Positions 12,367 to 20,696 of a DNA stretch of 28,768 nt are shown in pieces. Position 1 is the stretch's first letter; the number at the start of each line of letters is the position of its first letter. The position numbers were made by a program, and so were the translations under genes. The stretch comes from Clostridia bacterium (GTDB lineage: Bacteria > Bacillota > Clostridia > TANB77 > RGIG9151). The notes beneath the pieces were generated by a model. The model made no database searches. It was given only the letters and a program-made list of their open reading frames with translations, and was not told where the DNA came from. The DNA is taken from assembly GCA_016287855.1 (NCBI GenBank), contig JAEEXS010000007.1:1-28768 (forward strand). Reading direction: 5' to 3'.

Positions 12367-12807
12367 CTACTTACTTACCTTTATTTCCTCTCTATTTTTA
12401 TTTAATAATAAATATGTATCTTTTAAATTATCTTGTAATTTAGCTAAAATTTCATCTGCATAATCTAATGAACCGGCTCTTATTTCACGAGCGGTCTTTT
12501 GTGCATTTATAATCGTCTCGTTTGCTTGGTCATAAGCTTTACGCGTAATTTCGTTTTCGTCAACCATAGAAGCGATTCTATTTTCAGTTTCTTTTACAAT
12601 AGTTTCACTCTCTTTTTGGGCCTCTAATAAAATTCTTTGACGTTCTTCTTTTATCCATTTAGCTTGTTTTACTTCATCAGGAAGTTTTACTCTTATTTCT
12701 TTTAATAATTCTAGCATCTCACTTTTATTAATAACTGAAATGCCAAAAACACTCCAACCCTTTTCGATTAAATCCTCAGCTTTTTCTAACGCATTAAGAA
12801 CCTCCAT
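12367..12807 (-). CDS. Coiled-coil protein of unknown function (often annotated ATPase or V-ATPase subunit H-like)
   Basis: 146 aa, highly charged with heptad-like sequence (KQAKWIKEERQRILLEAQKESETIVKETENRI...). Its TAG abuts the mrnC ATG directly, and its own ATG lies 1 nt after the rsmD stop, so the three are tightly coupled. Confidence 0.6.
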   Translation of the reverse strand: MEVLNALEKAEDLIEKGWSVFGISVINKSEMLELLKEIRVKLPDEVKQAKWIKEERQRILLEAQKESETIVKETENRIASMVDENEITRKAYDQANETIINAQKTAREIRAGSLDYADEILAKLQDNLKDTYLLLNKNREEIKVSK

Positions 12808-12808
12808 A

Positions 12809-13354
12809 TTACAAAACCGCCTTCCTATAAAACGAAATAATTACTCTACCATACTTTCTAGAATCATATCTTTCAAAACAATCAATAGTATCAGGAACAA
12901 TATCTATAGAATCTGTTTCTAAAACTATTATAACATCATCCTTTACCACCCTTTTTAACTTACTTATAGCTTGTACACCAAGATCTTTTCCATAAGGTGG
13001 ATCTAAAAAAACTAAATCAAAAATATTATCTTTAAACTTTTCTAATGCTATTTCAAAATTATTATTTAATATCTCTGATTTATCTTCTACTCTACATTTA
13101 GCTACATTTTTCTTTATAATATCTATTGCTTCTTTAGAAGAATCTACAAAATAACAAAACTTTGCACCTCGGCTTAATGACTCTAATCCAAGAGCACCAC
13201 TTCCAGCAAATAAATCTAAAACTATTAAATCGTCTAACTTATTTCCAAGTATATTAAAAACTGATTCTTTTACTCTGTCTAATGTAGGTCTAGTATTATC
13301 GCCCTTTAACGTGCTCAAATTCAAGCCCCTACACTTTCCCGAAATTATTCTCAT
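12809..13354 (-). CDS. rsmD: 16S rRNA (guanine966-N2)-methyltransferase
   Basis: 181 aa. RIISGKCRG...TRPTLDRVKESVFNIL, the SAM motif LDLFAGSGALGLESLSRGA, and the catalytic DPPY. AGGAG SD. A TTGCAC-17-TAAAAT promoter candidate lies in 13385-13415. Confidence 0.93.
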   Translation of the reverse strand: MRIISGKCRGLNLSTLKGDNTRPTLDRVKESVFNILGNKLDDLIVLDLFAGSGALGLESLSRGAKFCYFVDSSKEAIDIIKKNVAKCRVEDKSEILNNNFEIALEKFKDNIFDLVFLDPPYGKDLGVQAISKLKRVVKDDVIIVLETDSIDIVPDTIDCFERYDSRKYGRVIISFYRKAVL

Positions 13355-13430
13355 AAATATCTCCTAAAATTAGTTATAATAACCATCACTATTTTATAAT
13401 ATTTATACAAAAAGTGCAATAACAAAACTA

Positions 13431-13470
13431 AAAAAATGGTCCGGAACAATTTTTTGTTCCGAACCATTTT
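13431..13470 (-). terminator. Rho-independent terminator of the GC-rich orphan gene
   Basis: The minus-strand RNA forms GGUUCGGAACA / UGUUCCGGACC, an 11-bp core containing one G-U wobble. On the plus strand the same position would be an A-C mismatch. The loop is 6 nt, AU pairs extend the stem, and a U run follows. The stem starts 2 nt after the TAA at 13473-13475. Confidence 0.8.
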
Positions 13471-13472
13471 AA

Positions 13473-13997
13473 TTAGTCAATTCCTTTCAGCACCTCCACC
13501 TTGGCGGTGTCAGGGCATGTTGCCCCATCCTGCTTGGTCTTCATCAGAACAAGCAAGATCTTCATCGCCGTGGAATAAGACAAATGGAAGTTGTCTTCCA
13601 TAATCTCGCCTGTATCCTCAATGGTAACAGGCAGAAGGACCCTACTCGTCTTTCCTACCAATACCGGAGAGAAACGCAAATCGACCTCTTGGTCACGCTG
13701 GATAGAGTAATCCCTAAGCTTTCCGAACTCTTCCCACTGTCCGGCCTTCATACGGTTGAGAAGATAAACCGCTCCAGCTGCCACATCTGCCCAAGTCGGG
13801 CGACGGCAGAATATCTTATCCTTCGCACTGGAGAGCCGCCTACTACTATAGCAGTAATAAAAACCTTCTCGCTTGGAAAAGCGAGCTGCAAACCTACTTA
13901 TTTCATATCCCCTTTTGTTCTTTACAGAAAAGATAGCATATTGCTTTCCCTGATATTTGCTCGGTCTTACTTCCTGCTTTTTTTCCACTTCTTCCAT
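13473..13997 (-). CDS. Orphan hypothetical protein (174 aa) of foreign base composition
   Basis: The frame is uninterrupted. AAGGA lies 6 nt before ATG 13997, and ATG 14027 is an alternative without an SD. The track start at 14093 is the TTG of the -35 box and is not credible. G+C is about 50 % against roughly 25 % in the flanks. The sequence looks globular, with alternating beta-like and helical segments. I recognise no family. Confidence 0.7.
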   Translation of the reverse strand: MEEVEKKQEVRPSKYQGKQYAIFSVKNKRGYEISRFAARFSKREGFYYCYSSRRLSSAKDKIFCRRPTWADVAAGAVYLLNRMKAGQWEEFGKLRDYSIQRDQEVDLRFSPVLVGKTSRVLLPVTIEDTGEIMEDNFHLSYSTAMKILLVLMKTKQDGATCPDTAKVEVLKGID

Positions 13998-14064
13998 TTT
14001 TCTTCCTTTCTTCACGTCCGCACCCATTATACTAGGTGCTATATTCCTTAAACCTAACAAATGT

Positions 14065-14093
14065 ATTATAATATTTTTATGTAAACTTGTCAA
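14065..14093 (-). promoter_or_regulatory. Exact sigma-70/SigA consensus promoter driving the GC-rich orphan gene
   Basis: The minus strand reads TTGACA-agtttacataaaaatat-TATAAT, with exactly 17 nt of spacer. The predicted transcription start is near 14058. Confidence 0.7.
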
Positions 14094-14110
14094 GGGAAAT
14101 CACTCCCTTG
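14091..14110 (-). terminator. Weak hairpin after the hexokinase-like gene, overlapping the -35 box above
   Basis: CAAGGGA-6 nt-TCCCTTG, a 7-bp stem lying 20 nt after the TAA at 14130. The following tract (ACAAGUUUAC) is a poor U run, so termination is doubtful. Confidence 0.3.
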
Positions 14111-14129
14111 TATTACCTAAACATCAAAT

Positions 14130-15332
14130 TTAAACACTCGCTTCAACTATTACTGGGCCAATAATTGAAGCATCTTTTATTAATTTATGACTTATCTTAG
14201 AAGCATTTTCTCCAAACACTTCATTTATTTCTCTACTTATCTCTTCCTTAAAGAAATCACATTTTTCATAAACAGAGCCATCAAAAATTATAGTATGTTC
14301 ATTTACTAAATCTTTGTCTATATACTTAATAATTGCACAAATTTCTGCCACAATAAGCTTTGCAGCACGAGTAAATAATAATTCTCCAACCGTTTTTATA
14401 ACTTCTCTTTGCTCTTCTGGTAATAAAAAGTCTTTATCTTCATTAACGCAAGATACCAAAACCTTTGTATTTATTTCTACGCACTTATTTAATAACTTTC
14501 TCTTTATTAAATCTTTAATTATCTCATCAGCAATTTTCCCTATATATTTTCCGCCTATAAGAACTTCAAATAGCTTATTTGCTTCACCAGATATTTTTTC
14601 TAAATATTTATTATCAAAAGTAGTAAGCGGAATATTTTTGTTAAAATTAGCACTTTCAATATTAATTACTTCTTTTTCATTATTTATAAACGAAGCATTA
14701 TGACCAGTTCCTACTATTAAAGCAATATCTGCGGTTTTATCATAAAATCTACCTGTAACTAATGTCGCAACACAATCATTTATAATAGCCATAGGTACTA
14801 TATTTAGCTTAGCAGAAAATATCGCTTGCATTAATATTTCATATATATTTCTATTTATAGTTTCTTTTAATTTAAAACCTTTCGATAGTTCAACTATATT
14901 CGCTTCTGTTTTGCTCTTTGAATCAATCCCAAAAGACACAGTAACAGCTAAAAAATACATCTTACTCCTACTTATATAAGGTTTCATCTTTTTTAATGCC
15001 TTTATAATTAAATCTTTAAGCGAATACTTGTTAGAAGTATAATTCCTAAACCTAGTTCTTAGTGGAAATTTAATTATCTTCTTAAAAATCACATCATTTT
15101 CTTCAATACTAAACTTTGCTATTCGTATATTACTCCCGCCTATATCTATTGCCAAATACTCGTTTGGAATAAGTTTTTCATCGCTTACAGTAATATAACT
15201 TTTAAGCATTTTTAACATTGTTTTTTCATTCATGTCTTTATAAAAAGCATCAGAAATTTGCGACAAGTTTTCTCTGGAAATAGTAAACTCCTCGCAAATT
15301 TTATTTAGTTCTGCTTTTAATTCAGGTTTCAT
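14130..15332 (-). CDS. Hexokinase-family sugar kinase (eukaryote-type hexokinase fold)
   Basis: 400 aa. Its motifs are collinear with hexokinases: LAIDIGGSNIRIA (phosphate-1), AIINDCVATLV, LIVGTGHNASF, INIESANF, FEVLIGGKYIGKI and IIFDGSVYEK. GGAGGG SD. Confidence 0.8.
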   Translation of the reverse strand: MKPELKAELNKICEEFTISRENLSQISDAFYKDMNEKTMLKMLKSYITVSDEKLIPNEYLAIDIGGSNIRIAKFSIEENDVIFKKIIKFPLRTRFRNYTSNKYSLKDLIIKALKKMKPYISRSKMYFLAVTVSFGIDSKSKTEANIVELSKGFKLKETINRNIYEILMQAIFSAKLNIVPMAIINDCVATLVTGRFYDKTADIALIVGTGHNASFINNEKEVINIESANFNKNIPLTTFDNKYLEKISGEANKLFEVLIGGKYIGKIADEIIKDLIKRKLLNKCVEINTKVLVSCVNEDKDFLLPEEQREVIKTVGELLFTRAAKLIVAEICAIIKYIDKDLVNEHTIIFDGSVYEKCDFFKEEISREINEVFGENASKISHKLIKDASIIGPVIVEASV

Positions 15333-18017: not shown

Positions 18018-20042
<2,025 letters not shown>

Positions 20043-20198: not shown

Positions 20199-20696
20199 AT
20201 GGATGGTTTCTTTAGCCATGTCCTTACTGCCATATTGTTATTTTTTGTAGGTGTTGTAGGTATATTAGTCTTGTTCTCGCTTATTCCCAGCTTGTGTCTC
20301 GCAAATTCCACTCGAAAGGACAATGAAAAGAAACTTCTCGAAGAGTTAAACAACCAAAACTGCTTTATAAGACTTTTTCTTCCGCAACTGACCGTATTGA
20401 AAACCGTTGCCCTAAAACTCTTTGGACCGTTTACCCTTGGGGCAAATTGCAAGTTAAAAGTTTTCATATCTCATTCTGGTAAACCTAATGAGTGGGATTA
20501 TTTCGGAGCTTCAACCTATGGGATCATAAACTTACTAAACCGTAGCGACTATTTATCCCTTACCATTGATTCCCAACTAAATAACTCCAAGTCATATATA
20601 GTTACTTATCTCTATGCCCCCACCAATTTAATAGAAGCTAGAGAAATGAAGCAACTAGAGCAACAGCAAGTATATAACCCAATTAATAAAGAGTAG
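20199..20696 (+). CDS. Hypothetical membrane-anchored protein (N-terminal TM helix plus a domain of about 120 aa)
   Basis: 165 aa. GGAGGTG SD 10 nt upstream. TM segment HVLTAILLFFVGVVGILVLFSLIPSL. The rest looks beta-rich (FTLGANCKLKVFISHSG...SYIVTYLYAP). It has its own promoter and terminator. I recognise no family. Confidence 0.6.
   Translation: MDGFFSHVLTAILLFFVGVVGILVLFSLIPSLCLANSTRKDNEKKLLEELNNQNCFIRLFLPQLTVLKTVALKLFGPFTLGANCKLKVFISHSGKPNEWDYFGASTYGIINLLNRSDYLSLTIDSQLNNSKSYIVTYLYAPTNLIEAREMKQLEQQQVYNPINKE

Follow-up and report, generated by a model that had tools for sequence, protein, structure and literature searches.

Atypical G+C content and codon usage are routinely taken as a sign of recent horizontal transfer, and in the concept of Lawrence & Ochman horizontally acquired genomic islets start out with such atypical values and subsequently ameliorate. 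In AT-rich genomes, a GC-rich island that has a promoter and a terminator of its own is classically an RNA gene, and screens for ncRNAs make use of this difference in G+C content. Loci of the comQXP(A) type are characterized by deep allele classes between conserved flanks, with an allele phylogeny that is decoupled from that of the genome and alleles that are shuffled by recombination in the flanks. In Bacillus the comQXP(A) pherotype loci are polymorphic at a fixed chromosomal position (PMC4408185, PMC4008528), and frequency-dependent selection is regarded as the cause of their diversity. Polymorphic-toxin systems include orphan immunity genes, such as those in the rAID clusters of gut Bacteroidales (PMC12247911). 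In bacterial genes that recombine, GC-ending, non-optimal codons are over-represented, which is ascribed to GC-biased gene conversion (gBGC) (Lassalle et al. 2015, PMC4450053).

Here we analyse gene X, located between a hexokinase-like gene and rsmD in the window, i.e., the whole stretch of 28,768 nucleotides under study. Like the comQXP(A) loci, X is polymorphic at a fixed position, and frequency-dependent selection is proposed for it as well. However, comQXP(A) encodes a secreted peptide, a modifying enzyme and a receptor kinase, whereas X encodes a single soluble protein without signal peptide, partner gene or homology to these components, and the anomaly in G+C content is particular to X. 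With the orphan immunity proteins X shares a small size and predicted cytoplasmic location, fast divergence from strain to strain, and a position in a variable hotspot of gut bacteria, and in one related locus a genuine AHH-toxin/Imm11 pair occurs in the X slot. Unlike these proteins, X is not recognized by any Imm, SUKH or PADLOC model; it is a single-copy gene at a position that is fixed across the lineage, with no array, associated recombinase or cognate effector. A literature search found neither X nor a comparable case described. In the reading that we prefer, and to which we assign a probability of roughly 55%, X is an autonomous, lineage-resident gene with deep, mosaic, cassette-swapped alleles and a stationary G+C content, subject to balancing selection and possibly involved in conflict.

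Architecture and composition of the X transcription unit

Gene X forms a monocistronic, autonomous unit comprising promoter, leader, ORF and its own terminator. Its features, all on the minus strand, are:

14094..14129 (-), variable spacer between the stop codon of the hexokinase-like gene (14130-14132) and the -35 box of X
14065..14093 (-), sigma-70/sigma-A consensus promoter, TTGACA-17 nt-TATAAT, with 12/12 consensus matches
14076-14087 (-), conserved promoter spacer element AGTTTACATAAA, inside the X promoter
13998..14058 (-), 5' leader of ~60 nt, from the inferred transcription start
14039-14020 (-), small leader stem-loop GCACC...GGUGC, identified by pairing and compensatory changes
14021-14015 (-), conserved motif (U)GCGGAYG in the leader
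14013-14002 (-), long, purine-rich Shine-Dalgarno region GAAGAAAGGAAG in the leader
13473..13997 (-), protein-coding gene X, 174 aa (174 codons), stop codon 13475-13473, identified by codon-periodic substitution, low dN/dS and homologs
13426..13470 (-), intrinsic terminator with a 17-bp stem (13470-13433), a 4-nt loop and a U run

The initial annotation had described a self-contained unit with an exact consensus promoter, the sequence AAGGA 6 nt upstream of the ATG at 13997, an open frame of 174 codons and a hairpin shortly after the stop codon, and each of these elements is indeed present. The promoter is the sole perfect site found in a promoter scan. The sequence TTGACAnnTTTACATAAA is kept at the X promoter in near and distant loci alike, and among the fetched loci the exact form of the promoter motif occurs only upstream of X. 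Use of the motif as a regulon marker was rejected, as the fetched loci carry it at X only and the second match in the window is at chance level and not significant. The leader hairpin is paired in 87.5% of the cells, versus 25-53% when the partners are slid, and shows compensatory changes at three pairs; within the X transcript, covariation is limited to this hairpin of 7-8 bp and the terminator. Distant loci retain GCGGAYG and the AAGAAAGGA ribosome-binding site (RBS), but their upstream hairpin differs. The terminator stem begins 2 nt past the TAA of X and is followed by a T run. Its folding energy is -23.1 kcal/mol for the minus-strand RNA and -20.5 kcal/mol for the plus strand, and the stem core TCGGAA...TTCCGA is kept, with covariation, in all loci. 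The design of promoter, leader and terminator is alike in all X homologs, across deep divergence. Judged from these sequence signals, the X unit appears to be built for high, stable and constitutive expression.

The G+C values that had been counted by hand are all exact on recount, being 180/360 (50%) over 13501-13860 and 58.3% over 13741-13800, with 21.7% (14041-14100), 25% (14161-14220) and 36.7% (13261-13320) in the flanks. Among 500-nt segments across the whole window, X is the top outlier in G+C content (0.466 versus roughly 0.26-0.40 elsewhere). The uncommon codons noticed by eye in the initial annotation are reflected in the computed profile: GC3 of X is 0.52 versus 0.20 ± 0.047 for the 28 other ORFs of the window (z = 6.8), and a CAI-like index with host genes as reference is 0.363 for X versus 0.715 ± 0.036 (z = -9.8). 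None of the 13 Leu codons in X is TTA, versus 55% in the host, whose genome has ~31% G+C and a GC3 near 0.2.

The composition of X is stationary and confined to the ORF. Despite saturated synonymous divergence, GC3 is 0.38-0.59 in every X allele; the four-fold sites of all alleles are close to uniform, S→W changes are about as many as W→S changes, and no drift towards the host composition (amelioration) is seen across the alleles. The non-coding parts of the cassette that are exchanged together with the ORF have a G+C content of just 0.22-0.39, and the genes adjoining X, although recombining too, have a GC3 of 0.12-0.22. Since X is both resident in its lineage (see below) and compositionally stationary, some gene-specific force has to hold it, with its host-rare codons, about 30 GC3 points above the genome. 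The high G+C content of the coding sequence might reflect selection on the mRNA or on the codons (stability or tuning of translation) rather than ancestry. The z-scores for folding of the ORF alone are inconsistent among alleles, ranging from +1.2 to -3.3, which weighs against taking selection on mRNA structure as established. X provides a clean natural test case for mRNA/codon selection versus biased gene conversion.

Protein X and its family

ORF X is a genuine protein gene and not an RNA gene. Differences between X alleles are concentrated at third codon positions (in one example 0.27/0.19/0.60 for the first, second and third position), dN/dS (ω) is 0.04-0.17 in unsaturated segments, indels between alleles are in-frame with invariant motifs, and the reading frame and RBS are kept down to 24% identity. 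The homologs, 13 close and ~13 distant, form a family of predicted soluble α+β proteins of ~145-195 aa with a pI of 5.8 to 9.6. Conserved motifs in the family are (E)PxWxDV, DxRFxP(I/V)L, LPxT(I/V)(D/E), (I/V)(L/M)E(H/D) and A(V/M)K, and the residues D71, D106, R108, D128, E134 and K146 are invariant or near-invariant. The conserved D/E/R/K/Y/W residues point to a defined site for binding or catalysis.

In line with the initial annotation, which recognized no family, X and its relatives have no match in Pfam, PHROGs, PADLOC or NCBIfam, nor in a sequence-profile search of the PDB. The sole hit in PADLOC-DB v2 is a weak one to HEC-02B, with E = 0.03, in 2 of the 20 members of the diverse alignment A2, and it is absent from 10 distant members that were rescanned singly. 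Two giant proteins that match the X profile were discarded as spurious, since the match runs via a low-information stretch of ~24 residues. An AlphaFold2 model based on alignment A2 is usable (pLDDT 76, pTM 0.71), whereas the model obtained from the close alleles alone is poor (pLDDT 47). Foldseek searches with the X model against the PDB and BFVD reveal no significant structural neighbour. The top matches are weak and include the Pur-alpha/Whirly-like entries 3k44, 8cht and 5fgp, with E-values of at least 0.19, TM-scores of at most 0.23 and an rmsd of about 16 Å. The predicted order of elements in X, β-β-β-α ... β-β-β-β-α, resembles two PUR repeats, but X has no significant structural match, no Pfam PUR match and no internal repeat detectable with hhalign; the Pur-alpha-like topology of the predicted model is a lead only. 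As far as these searches reach, the X family appears to be previously undescribed.

Chromosomal slot and cassette exchange

X immediately follows the hexokinase-like gene in 11/11 distinct alleles with readable context, down to 24-38% identity, and rsmD is found downstream of X wherever the contig extends that far. The slot is also kept in genomes in which the neighbouring proteins are only 55-88% identical, and no other genomic context for X was found. An outgroup with a 40%-identical hexokinase does not contain X. Among the sampled members of the lineage X is apparently always present, which is equally in keeping with a core function and with a role in conflict; the loci were sampled through X itself, so that empty hexokinase/rsmD slots would be missed. 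All members of the family come from a single uncultured, AT-rich lineage that is Firmicutes-like and known from ruminant and gut metagenomes. None was found outside this lineage among 1.84 billion representatives, and collections of phage and plasmid DNA contain no match to X. Peptides from close X alleles and from the hexokinase gave no match in the species-representative genomes of GTDB; these patterns are specific for close relatives and say little on distant ones. In agreement with the initial annotation, there is no integrase or transposase among the neighbouring ORFs and no terminal inverted repeat or target duplication at X. Flanking repeats are likewise absent, and the short repeats present are at chance level only; ARAGORN detects no tRNA or tmRNA. 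The slot can contain other genes in relatives, i.e., an AHH nuclease toxin with Imm11 in locus L023, and an extra GC-elevated membrane gene in L018/L019. X is a resident gene of the lineage and not a recent foreign insertion.

Among near relatives the genes flanking X are 86-100% identical at the amino acid level, with dS of 0.04-0.9, versus 57-85% identity for X. Synonymous sites in X are saturated (pS 0.72-0.88), with the exception of the closest pair, the window and L016 (0.55). Clustering at 90% divides the X proteins into 13 clusters, versus one each for RsmD and SpoVB/MurJ from the same genomes. The variable spacer at 14094..14129(-) marks the upstream limit of the segment that is hyper-divergent and exchanged, the multi-locus DNA alignment becoming unalignable straight after the stop codon of the hexokinase-like gene, and the terminator marks the downstream limit. 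Between L005 and L011 the identity is 92-100% in the flanks and only 24-74% in the cassette, with the hexokinase stop and the X terminator as its edges, and from the terminator onwards the identity returns to 94-100%. The flanks of this pair have dS of 0.04-0.19 while X is 60% identical, whereas L005 and L012 have flanks with dS of 0.42-0.86 and an X that is 73% identical; it is evident that the divergence of X is decoupled from that of its flanks. Contigs with the same allele show no differences over a cassette of 643-793 bp, with all synonymous sites and ~200 non-coding ones included, although 0.1-3.8% of the positions in their flanks differ. For example, the cassettes of L001 and L003 are identical while the upstream flank is 3.1% different; here the recombination tract runs at least 1.25 kb past the cassette, as in ordinary recombination. 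In addition, the X alleles are mosaics of one another.

Whole cassettes have thus been replaced between the hexokinase stop and the X terminator. Among the hallmarks of balanced polymorphisms of the comQXP/agr type, allele divergence far in excess of flank divergence, decoupling, exchange and mosaicism are observed. The X locus is a compact case of cassette-wise allele exchange, involving ~650 bp between conserved anchors, in uncultured gut and rumen bacteria.

Possible conflict role and alternative explanations

The X alleles coalesce far deeper than the surrounding genome while being under strong purifying selection, and whole cassettes are exchanged through homologous recombination, for which the conserved flanks serve as anchors. 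In the preferred reading the allelic diversity would be kept by balancing (frequency-dependent) selection. X may then act as an allele-specific partner in inter-strain or phage conflict, e.g., as an orphan-immunity-like protein or a defence or escape factor. We infer that a role as conflict partner is the most plausible reason for the diversity of the alleles; an immunity or anti-phage role is speculation. The deep alleles, mosaics, cassette swapping and the toxin/immunity pair in the L023 slot are compatible with immunity, whereas the positive selection of a classic arms race is not visible in X, dN/dS being low wherever measured. The Imm, SUKH, PADLOC and PHROG models give no match to X, and in an hhalign comparison X is unrelated to the Imm11 of L023 (probability 0.3%). 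No cognate toxin or partner gene is linked to X; no toxin at all lies next to it in the window or in most loci, and the L023 toxin is accompanied by its own Imm11. In type III toxin-antitoxin systems a toxin gene of ~170 aa is preceded by short RNA-antitoxin repeats in tandem; a system of this kind (ToxIN/AbiQ-like) was rejected, as there are no tandem repeats in 13200-14300 and no PADLOC or Pfam match.

Tentatively, and with clearly less confidence, X can be considered as the representative of a new class of single-gene 'allelic cassettes'. Such a gene would be fixed in its lineage and very strongly expressed, with ancient alleles that are under frequency-dependent selection and traded across strains and species through recombination in the flanks. 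It would serve as an allele-specific determinant of immunity, incompatibility or phage escape with a new fold, and its ~50% G+C with host-rare codons would be held by mRNA selection, e.g., for resistance to AU-targeting RNases or toxins, or for tuned translation. Should this apply, the composition of X would be a gene-specific equilibrium and not a relic of transfer. If X turns out to be a specificity factor in immunity or defence, it represents a new system made up of a single protein; otherwise it is still a caution against calling islands on composition.

Several other explanations have to be weighed against balancing selection. Unsampled sister species could instead be the source of the deep alleles, through repeated introgression into a junction that is prone to recombination, with X as a housekeeping or accessory gene without a role in conflict and its G+C content as a neutral by-product of gBGC at a hotspot. 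We regard this as possible though not probable. Purifying selection on X is like that on its neighbours, no sampled genome of the lineage is without the gene, the locus demonstrably recombines, and X shows, qualitatively, the GC-ending, non-optimal codons of recombining bacterial genes. However, the shift is restricted to the ORF and does not extend over the whole exchanged tract, the recombining neighbours are unaffected, and no donor lineages with diverged flanks are seen. Moreover, at about +0.3 (0.52 versus 0.20) the shift in GC3 looks far larger than gBGC effects in the literature. The initial annotation had proposed that X is an alien cassette, which would make it a recent acquisition that has not yet ameliorated. 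This is extremely unlikely and already contradicted. X does resemble horizontally acquired islets in its extreme GC3 and codon usage, its own promoter and terminator and its orphan protein, and other accessory genes have been inserted at the slot in relatives. Yet the slot after the hexokinase-like gene is kept in every recovered relative and, together with the regulatory design, down to 24-38% identity; the family occurs nowhere else among the representatives searched, with no phage or plasmid match and an empty GTDB scan, and mobility genes and repeats are absent. Nor is the atypical G+C content a fading mark of transfer, being stationary and ORF-restricted in all alleles despite saturated synonymous sites. 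The initial annotation had named close relatives carrying the gene at host-like composition as evidence against its proposal, and of this one half is found: the relatives do carry X, but never at host-like composition. Its description of the unit, the composition and the absence of a recognizable family is upheld, whereas the foreign origin is not.

The remaining explanations are less probable than introgression. X might be a selfish, free-standing gene of the homing type, whose product, e.g., a nuclease with conserved acidic residues, converts rival alleles. This would explain the whole-cassette replacement, the sharp edges and the sequence escape, and it fits the conserved flanks, the identical cassettes of L001 and L003, the six conserved charged residues and the intergenic position between conserved genes. 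It is nevertheless improbable, as X resembles no homing-endonuclease or nuclease family or fold, a perfect consensus promoter with a strong RBS is atypical for a potentially genotoxic enzyme, fixation in the lineage leaves no empty target, and the tract in L001 versus L003 extends beyond the cassette as in ordinary recombination. It is even less probable that the GC-rich island is a structured ncRNA or dual-function RNA gene with an incidental or secondary ORF. As in GC-rich RNA genes, X stands out as a discrete island in an AT-rich genome and has both a consensus promoter and a strong terminator; the leader hairpin covaries, folding of the whole transcript has z = -4.6, and for the ORF alone five of the six near-group alleles have z-scores of -1.8 to -3.3. 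In contrast to such genes, X has protein-coding signatures (codon-periodic substitutions, low ω, in-frame indels, and an ORF and RBS kept down to 24% identity), and the window and nine related loci give no Rfam match at gathering or permissive thresholds. There is also no consistent excess in ORF folding energy: L012, L018, L020 and L022 have z-scores close to 0 or above it, the ORF values overlap with those of ordinary neighbouring genes, and the terminator hairpin contributes part of the value of -4.6. Finally, local hypermutation of the cassette, transcription-associated or targeted, could generate the excess divergence in place, in line with a divergence that is raised at each of the codon positions and stops sharply at the limits of the transcription unit, and with a predicted very strong promoter. 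This is excluded because same-allele contigs show no differences in the cassette, where a rate elevated at least 10-fold would predict roughly 10 or more, and it is further contradicted by the decoupling of X from its flanks (L005 versus L011 and L012) and by the mosaic alleles. Like recent acquisition, hypermutation therefore has a negligible probability.

A conserved gene on the strand opposite X was also considered and rejected. The antisense frame is fully open in just 3/11 alleles, and it is open there as a side effect of the lack of TTA, CTA and TCA codons.

Composition and expression signals of gene X

The GC-rich gene between the hexokinase-like gene and rsmD, here called X, and the features of the window discussed with it are:

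13473-13997, minus strand: gene X, 174 codons
14093-14065, minus strand: promoter of X
14130-15332, minus strand: hexokinase-like gene, the upstream neighbour of X
12367-12807, minus strand: gene for a 146-aa protein, between rsmD and mini-RNase III
13481-13497 and 14003-14019: imperfect 17-nt direct repeat (14/17)
20199-20696, plus strand: ORF of 165 aa

The atypical composition described in the initial annotation is reproduced in every number. On recount, 13501-13860 contains exactly 180 G+C in 360 nt, the peak at 13741-13800 is 58%, and the flanks have the reported values of 22%, 25% and 37%. The 500-nt window of the ORF is the top GC outlier across the 28.8 kb (0.466 versus ∼0.26-0.40), the GC3 of X is 0.52 versus 0.20 ± 0.047 for the 28 other ORFs of the window (z = 6.8), and its host-referenced codon-adaptation index is 0.363 versus 0.715 ± 0.036 (z = -9.8). 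TTA, which has 55% usage in the host, accounts for none of the 13 leucine codons. Among the related loci fetched for comparison, every X allele has a GC3 of 0.38-0.59, versus 0.12-0.29 for all neighbours. Four-fold sites are nearly uniform in all X alleles, with each base at 0.14-0.36; in the host, C occupies 0.02-0.10 and G 0.07-0.15 of these sites. Polarised S→W and W→S changes in X are about equally frequent, parsimony polarisation being imperfect at such divergence. The composition of X is stationary, and the ORF is at its own compositional equilibrium. The GC excess is limited to the ORF (0.38-0.49, versus 0.22-0.39 in the co-exchanged non-coding parts).

The annotated expression signals are likewise present. 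The promoter is an exact TTGACA-17-TATAAT and the sole 12/12 site in the scan, AAGGA stands 6 nt 5′ of ATG 13997 at the head of the 174 codons, and a 17-bp terminator stem starts 2 nt past the TAA, folding better in the minus-strand RNA (-23.1 versus -20.5 kcal/mol). Integrase, transposase and terminal repeat are absent around the unit, as had been stated, and no tRNA or tandem repeat accompanies it. In both near and distant loci, the latter with X alleles 24-38% identical to that of the window, this regulatory design is kept to the same depth as the gene itself. The conserved promoter motif is TTGACAnnTTTACATAAA-N5/6-TATAAT, the exact form of which occurs nowhere in the fetched loci except at X. 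The leader consists of a small hairpin, a (U)GCGGAYG motif and a long purine-rich RBS, in that order; in the near group 87.5% of the hairpin cells are paired versus 25-53% when slid, with three compensatory pairs. The X terminators retain a TCGGAA...TTCCGA stem core. Judged from these elements (a perfect promoter, a stem-loop at the 5′ end, an extended SD and a strong terminator), expression of X would be high, stable and constitutive; just as well, a repressor could use the conserved promoter spacer as its operator. The leader/RBS sequence GGACGTGAAGAAAGGAA of the minus strand reappears as GGAGGTGCTGAAAGGAA near the 3′ end of the ORF, a repeat that is probably due to chance because other alleles do not keep it.

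Coding capacity and predicted fold

Islands of high GC in AT-rich genomes that have a strong promoter and terminator of their own look like structured RNA genes, and therefore this reading was examined first. Rfam searches are empty at gathering as well as permissive thresholds. The whole transcript folds at z = -4.6, partly owing to the terminator, and the z-scores of the ORF alone, which vary between alleles (+1.2 to -3.3), overlap the range seen in ordinary genes nearby (+0.2 to -2.3). X encodes a protein. It has 13 close homologs (57-100% identity) and about a dozen distant ones of 145-195 aa (∼25-33% over the alignment), the indels are in-frame, and the differences are codon-periodic (e.g. 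0.27/0.19/0.60 at positions 1/2/3), with dN/dS of 0.04-0.17 in unsaturated segments. Conserved blocks comprise (E)PxWxDV, DxRFxP(I/V)L, LPxT(I/V)(D/E), (I/V)(L/M)E(H/D) and A(V/M)K. AlphaFold2, provided with a diverse alignment, yields a confident α+β model (pLDDT 76, pTM 0.71). The in-phase antisense frame (plus strand, 13473-13997) is fully open in three of 11 alleles (window, L001 and the distant relative L017), because these alleles are without TTA, CTA and TCA codons; it is broken in the other eight, and a conserved antisense gene is rejected.

The family matches nothing in Pfam, PHROGs, PADLOC, NCBIfam or PDB sequences, and the model has no significant Foldseek neighbour (best E = 0.19, TM ≤ 0.23). 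Repeated weak matches to Pur-alpha agree with the β-β-β-α/β-β-β-β-α order of elements; these are below significance and are not counted as evidence for a Pur-alpha-like protein, and an internal repeat is undetectable. The variable pI of the family (5.8 to 9.6) argues against a generic nucleic-acid coat. Invariant or near-invariant polar residues (Y48, W69, D71, Y97, D106, R108, T125, D128, E134, K146 and K166) suggest a defined binding or catalytic site. A lineage-specific insertion in the near group, ∼11 residues long at about positions 53-63, has low pLDDT.

A resident gene with exchanged alleles

Genomic context was recovered for 11 distinct alleles, and in all 11 X directly follows the same eukaryote-type hexokinase-like gene; the comparison loci are metagenome contigs sampled via X itself, so that empty slots would escape. 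Where the contig is long enough, rsmD, the 146-aa protein and mini-RNase III lie downstream. The same slot is occupied in genomes in which the neighbour proteins are 55-88% and X 24-38% identical to those of the window. An outgroup with a 40% identical hexokinase keeps the LD-carboxypeptidase-hexokinase pair, with neither an X-like ORF nor rsmD downstream. When 1.84 billion representative proteins were searched exhaustively with a profile, only the small X family was returned, no match occurs in phage or plasmid DNA, and a scan of GTDB species-representative genomes with close-allele peptides found nothing. X is a resident, lineage-restricted gene: the initial annotation was accurate in its observations and is supported in part in its interpretation, but its foreign cassette, an alien gene in need of an acquisition story, is not borne out by the constant slot and the kept regulatory design.

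The upstream neighbour matches Pfam Hexokinase_1 and Hexokinase_2, a eukaryote-type enzyme considered unusual in bacteria. It is the fastest-evolving of the neighbours of X. Among 5.8 billion proteins it has only 43 clusters, almost all of which come from this lineage; the sole source-named match is bird hexokinase-2 (23% identity). The 146-aa protein is extremely conserved (100% identity in loci L001 and L016, 79-83% in distant genomes) and has no Pfam match. In L017, a T-box leader precedes metG (1671-1904, 111.9 bits); in the window no T-box reaches the gathering score, including upstream of metG (18018-19928).

Among near relatives, the seven genes neighbouring X show protein identities of 86-100%, dS of 0.04-0.9 and ω of 0.0-0.3. 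The X proteins are 57-85% identical, with saturated pS (0.72-0.88) except in the closest pair, the window and L016 (0.55). At 90% clustering, the same genomes give 13 clusters for X, and one each for RsmD and SpoVB/MurJ. The divergence of X is decoupled from its background. L005 and L011 have flanks of 92-100% identity in 50-nt windows (dS 0.04-0.19), drop to 24-74% from the hexokinase stop to the X stop codon, and return to 94-100% from the terminator on; L005 and L012 have more diverged flanks, yet their X alleles are more alike than those of L005 and L011. Local hypermutation is rejected by allele-sharing contigs, which have 0 differences over the 643-793 bp cassette, a count that takes in ∼200 non-coding positions and all synonymous sites, and flanks differing by 0.1-3.8%; in one such pair, L001 and L003, differences persist until ∼250 nt ahead of the start codon and are absent from there on. 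The alleles are mosaics that recombine with one another: L010 and L001 are 66-78% identical in the 5′ half and 91-96% around nt 330-420, L016 and the window 63-75% at the 5′ end but 90-92% further 3′, and in L009 the promoter, leader and N-terminus resemble those of the window and the C-terminus and terminator those of L001. X is thus a hyper-polymorphic orphan gene that has a GC equilibrium of its own; its alleles coalesce far deeper than the surrounding genome, are under ordinary purifying selection and are swapped as ∼650-bp cassettes via conserved flanks.

L011 has a direct duplication of ∼18 nt (AATAAATATTATAATGGC, twice, ∼1007-1050) right after the X stop codon and just before the terminator common to L011 and L005, which may be the footprint of a recombination junction. 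In L016 (1-1300), the hexokinase gene upstream of X can be aligned over its final ∼200 nt only, and in place of the rest stand an opposite-strand Hydrolase_4 gene and a further ORF; either the hexokinase gene contains a rearrangement breakpoint or the assembly is chimeric.

Maintenance of the alleles and the hexokinase-rsmD hotspot

A fixed locus with deep allele classes that recombine would bear the signature of balancing or frequency-dependent selection, as do pherotype loci (PMC4408185) and genes engaged in conflict, orphan immunity genes (PMC12247911) among them. An allele-specific role in inter-strain or phage conflict is favoured with moderate-to-low confidence; the low ω, the lack of a linked partner gene, the absence of a match to any immunity or defence model and the apparent fixation of X in the lineage call for caution. 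The strongest competing reading is a lineage-specific protein outside any conflict, with alleles brought in by introgression and GC raised by biased gene conversion, in line with the gain of GC-ending non-optimal codons by recombining bacterial genes (Lassalle et al., PMC4450053). However, the shift amounts to approximately +0.3 GC3 and is restricted to the ORF, and the adjacent genes, which also recombine, are of normal composition. Selection at the mRNA or codon level is therefore favoured as the cause of the GC content of X.

The hexokinase-rsmD junction is a hotspot that also receives conflict genes. In the distant relative L023 (2044-5672), two genes are inserted between X and rsmD, encoding a 1026-aa polymorphic toxin (Cu_amine_oxidN1, PG_binding_1 and a C-terminal AHH nuclease domain) and an Imm11 immunity protein. 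L018 (1100-1630) and L019 (1283-1813) contain an extra gene between hexokinase and X, with a GC3 of 0.40 and an apparent terminator hairpin of its own; its 176-aa, two-TM product has N- and C-terminal hydrophobic segments and only a sub-threshold DUF202 match in Pfam. Elsewhere in the window, the hydrophobic 165-aa ORF at 20199-20696, on the opposite strand to almost all its neighbours and without a Pfam match, is a second compositional outlier (GC3 0.39 and CAI-like index 0.416, versus 0.20 and 0.715 in the host), and may represent one more small gene of non-host character, akin to X or to the 176-aa gene of L018.
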